Of a DNA stretch of 64,000 nt, positions 43,228-61,986 are shown in pieces; the stretch's first letter is position 1; each line of letters opens with the position of its first letter. Position numbers and translations under genes: made by a program. The DNA lies in assembly GCA_048885865.1 (NCBI GenBank), contig JBHLLF010000001.1:141676-205675 (forward strand), written 5' to 3'. The notes beneath the pieces are model-generated. The model was not told the DNA's origin and did not search any database. It worked only from the letters and a program-made list of their open reading frames with translations. Source of the stretch: Candidatus Hermodarchaeota archaeon (GTDB lineage Archaea > Asgardarchaeota > Thorarchaeia > Thorarchaeales > Thorarchaeaceae).

Positions 43228-43725
43228 CTAATATCTGCGATCACGGTCGCGATCTCGATATCCGCCGCCGCCACGTCTATCTCTGTAGCCGCCACCACCG
43301 CGACGGTCTCTGTAATCTCCGCCGCCGCCACGTCCGCCATATCTTCTTGGTGGACGTTCATGCTCTTCGGCTGAGACGTCGTTTTCCTCGTTGACTTCTT
43401 CAATTGGCTCCTCAGCTTCATTGATAATACCATATCTTCCAATATTGAGCCGAAGATTCCTTTGAAATAGTCCAGTATATCCGTTTTCAAGCTTGTAGGT
43501 CTTGCCAACCTCTAGTGCGTCAATGGAGTCATCCCACAGAGGCATTACAACTGTGCCACTGGCATCTCCAATGACAATATCTGCAACACGATGGGTTTCG
43601 CCATCATGCCTTGAGGTCACCTCGCGAGCCTCGCCCTTTGATAGGACCTTGAACGAGATTGTTAGGTTCTTCATACGGGGTTTAAGGTCTGAGATGATAG
43701 CAAGAACAGGTTCCGGTTCGCTCAT
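43228..43725 (-). CDS. Single OB-fold SSB-like nucleic acid-binding protein with RGG/RD tail (paralogue 1)
   Basis: VIGDASGTV..LWD, NGYTGLFQRNLRLNIGRYG; tail YRDRRGGGG repeats. Confidence 0.88.
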   Translation of the reverse strand: MSEPEPVLAIISDLKPRMKNLTISFKVLSKGEAREVTSRHDGETHRVADIVIGDASGTVVMPLWDDSIDALEVGKTYKLENGYTGLFQRNLRLNIGRYGIINEAEEPIEEVNEENDVSAEEHERPPRRYGGRGGGGDYRDRRGGGGYRDRRGGGGYRDRDRDRRY

Positions 43726-43870
43726 GTTAATTCACTCTGGTTTCGGATTAACAGGTTTACAAAACGAGTAGGGGTCATCCGGGAATCGGCCCGGGAATCG
43801 GGATCGTATTCGTTGGTGACGACAGGCTCGTCTTACCTGCACTCCTAGACCACTCTGTTTTGCTAATAAA
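43726..43870 (-). promoter_or_regulatory. TATA box plus ~120-nt structured 5' leader of SSB-like paralogue 1
   Basis: TTTATTAG then GGAGTGCAGGTA...GTTTTG..CCTGT..AGAGT, motifs shared with the paralogue 2 leader. Confidence 0.6.
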
Positions 43871-43901: not shown

Positions 43902-44366
43902 CTAGCCTAGCTTCTGAGGAGGATTCAACCTACTCACGTAGTACATGCCAGCGACAAGGACCAGAGGTCCAAGGAAGATAATTGCGGAGCCAATACTCCA
44001 AAGCAAGCTGAACTCAACATTTAGATTGACCAGAATATTCCCCGCGATGAACATGATGATCCCGGATAGCATGATGATGAGTCCAGGTCTGGTGTCCCTC
44101 CTTTCAATCACAGGCTCAGGAGCAGACGCGATGGTTGGTGCATCGGATGTCTTGGCATCAGATCTGTAGAAGCGGCTTCCATCTGATGTCAGTCTTCCAG
44201 ATAGCTTGCCTTCCTCTACCAGCTCCATAAGCATCTTCTGAGTTTCTTCAGGTGATAAGCCAATCCGCGAGCTCAACATGTCGATTGAACTGACATTGTT
44301 CTCCACAAGGTCAACTAGATTGACTACACTCTCCGAACGAATGTTTCTCGTTTCGCTACCTATCAT
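43902..44366 (-). CDS. PCI-like winged-helix protein with two C-terminal TM helices
   Basis: LSSRIGLSPEETQKMLMELVEEGKLSGRL and two hydrophobic segments. Confidence 0.6.
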   Translation of the reverse strand: MIGSETRNIRSESVVNLVDLVENNVSSIDMLSSRIGLSPEETQKMLMELVEEGKLSGRLTSDGSRFYRSDAKTSDAPTIASAPEPVIERRDTRPGLIIMLSGIIMFIAGNILVNLNVEFSLLWSIGSAIIFLGPLVLVAGMYYVSRLNPPQKLG

Positions 44367-60583: not shown

Positions 60584-60762
60584 GAAGCATTTCTCCTGAT
60601 TAACTGGTTTCTGCTATATCATTTCTCAACCTTAAGAGGTCTATTATTGAGGTTGAGGTATAGTGAAATCAGCTGGATCCTTCCGTTGAATGTGACTGAA
60701 AATGGTCTGAAGTTACAGCCACTAACAGATGTTCATCCATTACAGTGCAAAAAGGAAGAAAT

Positions 60763-60790
60763 GATGGGCAACTCCTGAGGAGCTCCCATC
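60763..60790 (-). terminator. Hairpin downstream of SSB-like paralogue 2
   Basis: GATGGG..CTCCT-G-AGGAG..CCCATC followed by a T-rich tract on the minus strand. Confidence 0.5.
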
Positions 60791-60818
60791 AAGATGCTAT
60801 TTGATGTGTTTCGAAGAA

Positions 60819-61355
60819 TTAGTATCGACGACGTCTGTCGCGATCGCGACCGCCACCATAGCCGCCGCCGCCGCCACGCCTATCTCTTCCGCCATAACCA
60901 CCACGTCGGTCGCCGCCATAGCCACCGCCGCCGTAGCCGCCGCCGCCTCTTCCACCGCCGTAGTCTCTACGACGTCGAAAGTCTTCATGCTCTTCAGCAG
61001 ACATGTCGTTGTCCATATTGACTTCTTCGATAGCTTCCTCTGCATCAGAAAGCTCACCATATTTGCCAATATTCAATCTTAGATTTCCTTTGAACAAGCC
61101 CGTGTACCCATTCTTCAAGAGGTAGGTCTTGTCAGCCTCGAGGGCATCGATAGTGTCGTCCCATAGAGGAACCGCTACCGTACCGGTGCTGTCTCCAACA
61201 ATCGCATCTAGGACGCGGTGTGTGGTCATATCACGGCGGGATGAAACCTCGCGCTCTTCGCCTTTCTCTAAAACTTTGAAGGTGATGGTGATGTTCTTCA
61301 TTCTTGGCCGAAGTTCGGCAACTGTAGCCTCAATCGGCTCTCTTTCGTAACTCAT
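60819..61355 (-). CDS. Single OB-fold SSB-like protein with RGG/YGG tail (paralogue 2)
   Basis: Colinear with 43228..43725; tail GGGYGG/RDRR repeats. Confidence 0.88.
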   Translation of the reverse strand: MSYEREPIEATVAELRPRMKNITITFKVLEKGEEREVSSRRDMTTHRVLDAIVGDSTGTVAVPLWDDTIDALEADKTYLLKNGYTGLFKGNLRLNIGKYGELSDAEEAIEEVNMDNDMSAEEHEDFRRRRDYGGGRGGGGYGGGGYGGDRRGGYGGRDRRGGGGGYGGGRDRDRRRRY

Positions 61356-61511
61356 AGTGAATACTCTCGTATCTATTGCAGGACGGTCAAAACAAGCGTG
61401 TTCCTCGGTGATGTGCGATTCGGGTTATACCCCTCTCTCTAGACCACGTATCAGAATTGCGCCTAGTAGTCGGTGTACCTGCACTCCAGAGTCCAGAGCG
61501 TTTGCTTATTA
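61356..61511 (-). promoter_or_regulatory. TATA box plus ~130-nt structured 5' leader of SSB-like paralogue 2
   Basis: ATAATAAG then GGAGTGCAGGTA...GTTTTG..CCTGC..AGAGT. Confidence 0.6.
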
Positions 61512-61539
61512 TCTTGTTCATTGCGCTGATTTTAACGCG

Positions 61540-61986
61540 CTAGTAGCACTTACAAAACTCTCGCAGCTCATCGACTTGGCGTTTTTGAAGCTGAGCCAGG
61601 TATTCAAGGAGTTGACTGATGAGTGATGACTTGGCTCGAGTTGCCAGTTTCAGATAAAGTGTATATGTCTTGATGCTCCTTTCCAGAACTTGATTACAGA
61701 CATAGATTCTTGGATCTGTTTCAGCTCGAGATGGATCAAATGGAGTTGGATCAGGAACAGTGTCATCAGATGCATTGAGTTCCTCCAACTCATCAACTAT
61801 TCCTGTCACCATCATATGTTGTATCTTGTCAATCATTCTTGATTCAGATTCGACGAGATGCATCAGCAATGCCTTGACCTCTTCTATCTCAGACTCCTCA
61901 GCAATATTCTTGAAAAACTCGTACTGGGATTTCGCAGTCGATAAGGCGATTTTTAGCATAGGGCTTGTAGGATCTATGATGGTCAA
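61540..61986 (-). CDS. Ferritin/rubrerythrin-like protein (degenerate)
   Basis: Two helical-hairpin repeats (ALSTAKSQYEFF..LVESESR; VLERSIKTYTLY..LAQLQKR) lacking ExxH. Confidence 0.5.
   Translation of the reverse strand: MTIIDPTSPMLKIALSTAKSQYEFFKNIAEESEIEEVKALLMHLVESESRMIDKIQHMMVTGIVDELEELNASDDTVPDPTPFDPSRAETDPRIYVCNQVLERSIKTYTLYLKLATRAKSSLISQLLEYLAQLQKRQVDELREFCKCY

Follow-up and report, generated by a model that had tools for sequence, protein, structure and literature searches.

A conserved, probably cis-acting 5' leader on the mRNAs of Ssb-like OB-fold/RGG proteins of Thorarchaeota

The stretch of DNA analyzed here, called the window below, comprises 64,000 nucleotides (nt) of contig JBHLLF010000001.1 (positions 141,676 to 205,675 of the forward strand; assembly GCA_048885865.1) from a Candidatus Hermodarchaeota archaeon placed by GTDB in the Asgard family Thorarchaeaceae. 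On its minus strand, two distant genes coding for small Ssb-like OB-fold proteins with RGG-type tails are each preceded by a long leader, and we find that these leaders are copies of a conserved, cis-acting, structured 5' untranslated region (5' UTR). The leader is conserved among orthologues, occurs exclusively upstream of genes of this family, is cotranscribed with the coding sequence and is closed by a helix, P1, whose two strands covary. By analogy with known systems, it would set the output of protein at the posttranscriptional level. We see about an even chance that it is a lineage-specific cis-acting 5' UTR of monocistronic Ssb-like OB-fold/RGG mRNAs that serves posttranscriptional control, probably through feedback by the encoded protein.

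Architecture and distribution of the leader

An earlier note, made by reading the sequence of the window alone, had drawn attention to these two leaders through an identical 12-mer, GGAGTGCAGGTA, which we recovered exactly at 43834-43845(-) and 61476-61487(-). Even with one mismatch allowed, these are the only two sites in the window, where 0.21 would be expected, and the whole 3.58-Mb genome holds just three exact copies, the third lying in an unrelated stretch of contig C20. The TATA-like boxes that the note had placed with their first base 25 nt ahead of the 12-mer are found there in both cases, as is the shared 3' end, GTTTTG-N4/5-CCTGY...GAWAC-N-AGAGT-N7/8-ATG. In leader 1, the proposed stacked helix AAGACGAG/CUCGUUUU reappears in the predicted fold, and the 11-nt direct repeat (43791-43801 and 43779-43789) makes up its apical hairpin. 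The middles of the leaders had been called unrelated; this holds between the two window copies, but the middle of leader 2 turns out to be the consensus of the family, and leader 1 is a diverged member. A covariance model made from 66 orthologous leaders, R1, accordingly scores leader 2 at 80 bits and leader 1 at 42 bits.

Upstream of about 100 orthologues from the same family, spread over most of its genera, we found one promoter-plus-leader design that includes the motifs expected by the earlier note. It consists of a TATA element (WTMWTAAG), 22 nt, the junction T|GCAGG, a variable interior with conserved blocks, CUAGUUUUG, 4 to 6 nt and CCUGY, and continues with a small hairpin, GAGAG or GAGUG, and 7 to 9 nt before the AUG. 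The element GUUUUG is close to invariant across the 66 aligned leaders. In the genome of the window itself, R1 has three matches, each terminating at the ATG of an Ssb-like gene. We then surveyed 151 Asgard genomes, 27 of them from the family of the window (its own genome included) and 124 from other Asgard families. The model returned 37 matches in 20 of the 27 family genomes (19 of the 26 others plus our own) and, with strict filters, none in the 124 remaining genomes, a figure that understates the spread of the architecture because R1 is blind to the leaders of Hermodarchaeota-like orthologues (Hermod-type leaders below). All 37 matches adjoin the start of an Ssb-like gene, as determined by coordinate comparison and by tblastn on 30 fetched loci, and tandem paralogues each retain their own promoter and leader. 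Searches of Rfam release 15 matched no family: the leader 1 region gave no match with an E value of ≤10 other than two chance ones inside the coding sequence, and none with an E value of ≤1 was obtained for loci with leader 2, the copy on contig C88, one canonical Thorarchaeota (Thor) leader and one Hermod-type leader.

Both downstream genes belong to the Pfam family Ssb-like_OB (PF21473), which is of the single-strand nucleic-acid-binding type, and the encoded proteins are probable RNA chaperones. The assembly, which is 87% complete, contains four close Ssb-like paralogues. The paralogue on contig C88 has the same leader as the window copies. The fourth, on contig C23 (C23:12623-13078; 57% identical), has no such leader in its A/T-rich upstream region; its product carries an N-terminal extension and a basic tail, and similar copies in sister genomes are likewise devoid of the leader.

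By hand inspection, diverged leaders were seen in Hermodarchaeota-like genomes and in one further Asgard family. The Hermodarchaeota-like orthologues (L077, L084-L086, L088, L090, L093, L095, L096, L098, L099, L101 and L105) carry a leader of another kind, about 110 nt long, which follows an TTTTTATA box, has the invariant end GUGGUACCGAAAAUG and retains GGAAGCCUG together with the 5'-terminal complementary strand. In a minimal version of about 75 nt (L036 and L059), an 8-bp closing helix surrounds just ~26 nt, which points to closing helix, U-tract and tail as the essential parts. A further subtype (L021, L041, L044, L052, L054 and L067) bears an extra 6- to 7-bp hairpin, UUAUGC-loop-GCAUAA, whose loop varies (UUCG, GGAA, UUUG or GUA) and which lies directly before a better Shine-Dalgarno (SD)-like element, GUGAGUGAU.

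Promoter geometry and transcription

Archaeal promoters usually have a TATA box centered near -26/-27 and a purine start preceded by a pyrimidine. Of 78 distinct promoters, about 73 have a spacer of 22 nt between the end of the TATA element and the G of GCAGG; T|G stands at the -1|+1 junction of 64, and pyrimidine|purine at that of 74. Since both features fit the usual geometry, the G of GCAGG is predicted to be +1, which yields leaders of 115 nt (from G43840) and 127 nt (from G61482) in a family range of 115 to 140 nt. With a start at this G, the closing helix begins at the 5' end of the mRNA. Just upstream of the TATA box there is a further conserved block, CAATGCAYAA / CTGTRCACAAG (61513-61530 and the equivalent positions of orthologues), which may be a transcription factor B recognition element or a shared transcription factor site.

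RNA evidence came from Logan contigs of four metatranscriptome runs aligned to 60700-61700. One run (X18) covers just the low-complexity RGG region and is uninformative on the leader. A 583-nt RNA contig from relatives that are ~90 to 95% identical spans 60856-61473, that is, the coding sequence and the leader, and loose contig ends bear the 3' leader motifs of other relatives. The earlier note had raised the possibility of a start close to the ATG; the RNA contigs have the leader joined to the coding sequence, and therefore the start does not lie near the ATG. In three wetland runs, four whole contigs share an end at 61472/61473, which corresponds to +10 of the predicted start, and 61482-61700 is uncovered by any RNA contig of the four runs. 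Metatranscriptome libraries usually lose the extreme 5' ends of transcripts, and the contig end at +10 is consistent with such a loss, contigs of this kind being unable to prove a start.

Closing helix, 3' tail and variable interior

When the window leaders are folded from the predicted +1, their first 5 to 6 nt pair with CCUGY and thereby close the leader. In 10 of 12 leaders, P1 reaches an ensemble probability of 0.85 or more at 5 to 37°C. The helix hardly varies within the main Thor type: over 90 distinct leaders it is 93% paired, the changes being mostly from G-C to G-U, with U-A to C-G at the inner end. In diverged leaders, the two strands change jointly, giving AUCAG/CUGAU in the Hermod type, GUCAG/CUGAC, and UACAGA/UCUGUA in another Asgard family, as well as GCAGGCG/CGUCUGC, CAGGCGU/ACGCCUG, GCGGACAG/CUGUCCGU and GCGAGACUG/CAGUCUUGC. 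The pairing of GCAGG with CCUGY, for which the earlier note had asked whether covariation could be seen, is thus maintained via compensatory changes. In several of the diverged types, the 5' strand of P1 starts at, or a few nucleotides from, the position 22 nt after the TATA element. In all types examined, GUUUUG pairs with a purine-rich strand adjoining P1, and we term this extension P2.

The distance from CCUG to the AUG is 27 to 31 nt in the Thor and Hermod-type leaders counted, and 35 nt in one f18 leader. This tail repeatedly contains a small hairpin, of differing sequence, that lies over or ahead of the SD-like element; two of its pairs show 8 to 9 double changes. As the ordinary SD sequence of the genome is GGAGGUGA, with a peak at -13, the GAGAG found at the SD position reads as a conserved, putatively weak site. 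Overall, the predicted folds place a structured element at the 5' end and the ribosome-binding site in a weakly structured tail behind it.

The earlier note's description of a conserved structured 5' UTR of cis-regulatory character thus stands with regard to conservation, transcription and the retained closing helix, whereas the stacked interior helices that it described are particular to leader 1. The interior ranges from ~26 nt (L036) to ~100 nt and differs between paralogues of one genome. RNAalifold runs on MAFFT alignments returned either no structure or just P1, P7 and a local hairpin. Individual minimum free energy (MFE) folds show an interior "rod", which was dropped, since column-pair scans lend it no support. 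Three other candidates were also rejected: an alternative fold in which UUUUG pairs with CGAGA of the SD-like element is broken by the leaders with GAGUG, a leaderless upstream open reading frame from a GUG is not retained in orthologues with CCGCAGG and 1-nt indels, and a C/D-box small RNA lacks conserved boxes.

Function, alternatives and relation to known systems

On the basis of these observations, we favor a mechanism in which the first 5 to 7 nt of the transcript would pair with CCUGY ~30 nt upstream of the AUG to form P1, which would be extended by P2 through the purine-rich strand and GUUUUG, both helices closing a variable domain of ~26 to 100 nt. Next would come an A/U-rich tail of ~30 nt, with a deliberately weak SD-like GAGAG or GAGUG that is usually held partly in the small hairpin. 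Protein made in surplus might then attach to single-stranded RNA next to the structured domain, in the U-rich stretch and the tail, and block the weak site at which ribosomes bind, as happens with phage T4 gene 32 and the cspA cold box. As a second effect, the base-paired 5' end could shield the mRNA from decay that depends on the 5' end. Such autoregulation by the encoded protein, which the earlier note had suggested, is plausible by analogy.

Phage T4 gene 32 is an autoregulated gene for a single-strand binding protein (SSB) whose operator is a pseudoknot followed by a weakly structured, A/U-rich tail of ~30 to 40 nt with the ribosome-binding site. The genes studied here are also of the single-strand binding kind, with a structured 5' element followed by an A/U-rich tail; unlike in the T4 pseudoknot, a long-range helix closes a variable domain, and protein binding is hypothetical. 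The cspA family of E. coli offers an analogy in layout, not homology: its genes, too, are multicopy, code for small OB-type nucleic-acid chaperones and have long leaders; its paralogues have a 5'-terminal box in common, along with a conserved block close to the SD, and autoregulation has been proposed in either case. In contrast to that family, there is no sequence or model similarity, the genes are Ssb-like_OB rather than CSD genes, no temperature switch is predicted and the promoter is an archaeal one with a TATA box. The leader belongs to no Rfam family, nor is it of the cspA or T4 gene 32 type, and it is best filed as a structured regulatory mRNA leader.

Several points weigh against the favored reading. 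The P1 pair counts derive from an alignment fitted to R1, and the covariation of the diverged types was read by eye, without formal scoring. Column-pair covariation scans (A3 and the model-fitted A4) bring out only P1 and isolated clade-driven pairs, with no coherent interior helices. Folding energies are little better than those of shuffled sequences (mean z, -0.74 for 79 leaders; -2.1 and -0.8 for the two window copies). The RNA contigs break off 10 nt short of the predicted start and hence do not cover GCAGG, and the three wetland runs may be one campaign. Finally, the case for function is entirely one of analogy.

The leader could instead be purely an mRNA stabilizer, its 5'-end helix protecting an abundant transcript from 5'-to-3' exonucleases without regulatory input. 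Several leader types have P1 beginning at the predicted +1, and an interior that varies down to ~26 nt (L036) fits a need for the closing helix alone. As in stabilizers of the ompA 5' UTR type, the helix is predicted to use the first nucleotides of the transcript; unlike in these, its partner strand lies ~95 to 110 nt downstream and additional conserved blocks are present. We nevertheless hold protection by itself to be somewhat unlikely, as it accounts for neither the near-invariant GUUUUG nor the conserved, putatively weak GAGAG and its hairpin at the SD position, nor does it explain the conserved blocks of the interior or the restriction to one gene family. The earlier note had also entertained an RNA thermosensor, which would resemble that of cspA in that alternative cold and warm folds expose or hide the ribosome-binding site. 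The long leaders and the 5' box shared by paralogues, as in cspA, cspB and cspG, speak in its favor, as does the partial pairing of the SD-like region. The encoded proteins, moreover, resemble the Saccharolobus SSB, a cold-shock chaperone (PMC10684826). Against this, folding of 12 leaders over a temperature series from 5 to 37°C predicts that SD/AUG accessibility shifts just gradually while P1 stays formed, without a switch-like opening of the ribosome-binding region, and the Rfam cspA and thermometer models give no match. To the extent that predicted folds can be relied on, the idea is weakened, and we regard such a sensor as improbable.

Transcription attenuation, with the tract of four to six U's ~95 nt into the leader signaling premature termination and read-through being modulated by an antiterminator that binds RNA and might be the encoded protein, draws on the near-invariance of the tract, which has five or six U's in several leaders, and on the antitermination activity of the Saccharolobus SSB in E. 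coli (PMC10684826). Most leaders have just four U's, however, one RNA contig reads through into the whole coding sequence, and no short RNA consisting of the leader alone was seen, although no search aimed at it was made; we consider this a rather remote prospect. The box could instead be a promoter or initiator element operating on the DNA level only, its complementarity to CCTG being incidental; it does lie at a fixed distance from the TATA element and outside the coverage of the RNA contigs. We give this little credence because diverged leaders have matching changes in both strands, 8-bp and 9-bp helices of unrelated sequence included. A start downstream of the box would also put the TATA element ~35 nt upstream of it, an atypical distance for archaea. 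A ligand-binding riboswitch, suggested by a long conserved leader with a closing helix, is the least credible of all: the interior is unrelated between paralogues of the same genome and nearly absent in L036, there are neither Rfam matches nor coherent covarying core helices, and the controlled gene codes for a nucleic-acid-binding protein rather than one of metabolism or transport.

What is known about a related archaeal SSB also speaks for the favored reading. The S. islandicus protein has a single OB fold and a tail rich in Gly and Arg; replication can do without it, and its role is that of a cold-shock RNA chaperone (PMC10684826). It rises in the cold, has antitermination activity and is harmful or toxic if overexpressed, and its authors, to whom its regulation was unknown, point to the 5' UTR control of bacterial Csps (PMC10684826). 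The Thorarchaeota proteins are of the same single-OB archaeal SSB type with a flexible Gly/Arg-rich tail; unlike that protein, they are multicopy, have a basic tip and are known here from sequence, and the S. islandicus work covers the protein and not a leader. Their RGG tails are eukaryote style.

Neither a CSD nor a TRAM domain was found in the 87%-complete genome of the window. Among 41 family genomes, CSD genes occur in four, namely, all three of genus g12, with two to three copies each, and one of g9, and no stand-alone TRAM gene was found, TRAM being present just as a domain in enzymes or open reading frames of ~430 to 460 aa. The g12 genomes have no R1 match, and in one of them the only Ssb-like gene is a distant one. 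This distribution, seen in one clade only, hints that CSD genes and leader-bearing Ssb-like genes are alternative systems. It is possible, and we advance it tentatively, that most Thorarchaeota, having neither Csp nor stand-alone TRAM, run a cold-shock-like RNA-chaperone system of multicopy Ssb-like OB/RGG proteins, each tuned by an autoregulatory leader in which the 5'-terminal helix and the U-tract form the operator.

Hardly any cis-regulatory RNAs have been described in Asgard archaea, and the leader lies outside the catalogued RNA families. It provides a concrete candidate answer to the question of how levels of archaeal SSB-type RNA chaperones are set (PMC10684826). The leader RNA and the proteins are of a size suited to in vitro work, even with organisms that are uncultured. 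The predicted rule that the first nucleotides form the closing helix also offers a route to sequence-based annotation of starts for Ssb-like genes in Asgard metagenomes. The coordinates of the two leaders and their genes are collected in Table 1.

Table 1. Positions in the window of the two leaders, their predicted elements and the genes that follow them
Feature	Position	Strand	Basis or remark
TATA-like box TTTATTAG, leader 1	43863..43870	-	Sequence; 22-nt spacer to G of GCAGG
Predicted transcription start G43840 and P1 5' strand GCAGGU, leader 1	43835..43840	-	Promoter geometry, T|G junction, MFE pairing with 43751-43756
Covariance-model match over leader 1	43723-43843	-	Model R1
P2 5' strand AAGACGAG, leader 1	43827..43834	-	Pairs with CUCGUUUU (43761-43768) in MFE and centroid folds
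Direct repeat CCGATTCCCGG x2, apical hairpin of leader 1	43779..43801	-	Copy specific; not seen in orthologous leaders
U-tract block CUCGUUUUG, P2 3' strand, leader 1	43760..43768	-	Conserved
P1 3' strand ACCUGU, leader 1	43751..43756	-	CCUG begins 30 nt ahead of AUG
Putative weak SD-like AGAGUG, leader 1	43733..43738	-	At the position where the genome's genes have GGAGGUGA
Ssb-like OB-fold gene, RGG/RD tail, 165 aa	43228..43725	-	Pfam PF21473, E 5e-12
TATA-like box ATAATAAG, leader 2	61505..61512	-	Sequence, promoter geometry
Predicted transcription start G61482 and P1 5' strand GCAGG, leader 2	61478..61482	-	Promoter geometry, fold
U-tract GUUUUG, leader 2	61388..61393	-	Conserved
P1 3' strand CCUGC, leader 2	61378..61382	-	P1 ensemble probability ~1.0 at 5-37°C
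Putative weak SD-like GAGAGU, leader 2	61363..61368	-	In loop of small GAUAC/GUAUU hairpin
Full R1 match (leader 2 and ATG)	61353..61485	-	80.4 bits, E 4.9e-12 in whole genome
Ssb-like OB-fold gene, RGG/YGG tail, 178 aa	60819..61355	-	Pfam PF21473, E 4.5e-14

The gene upstream of leader 1 (43902-44366, minus strand) codes for a 154-aa protein with weak winged-helix/PCI-like matches in its N-terminal part and a hydrophobic C-terminal half.
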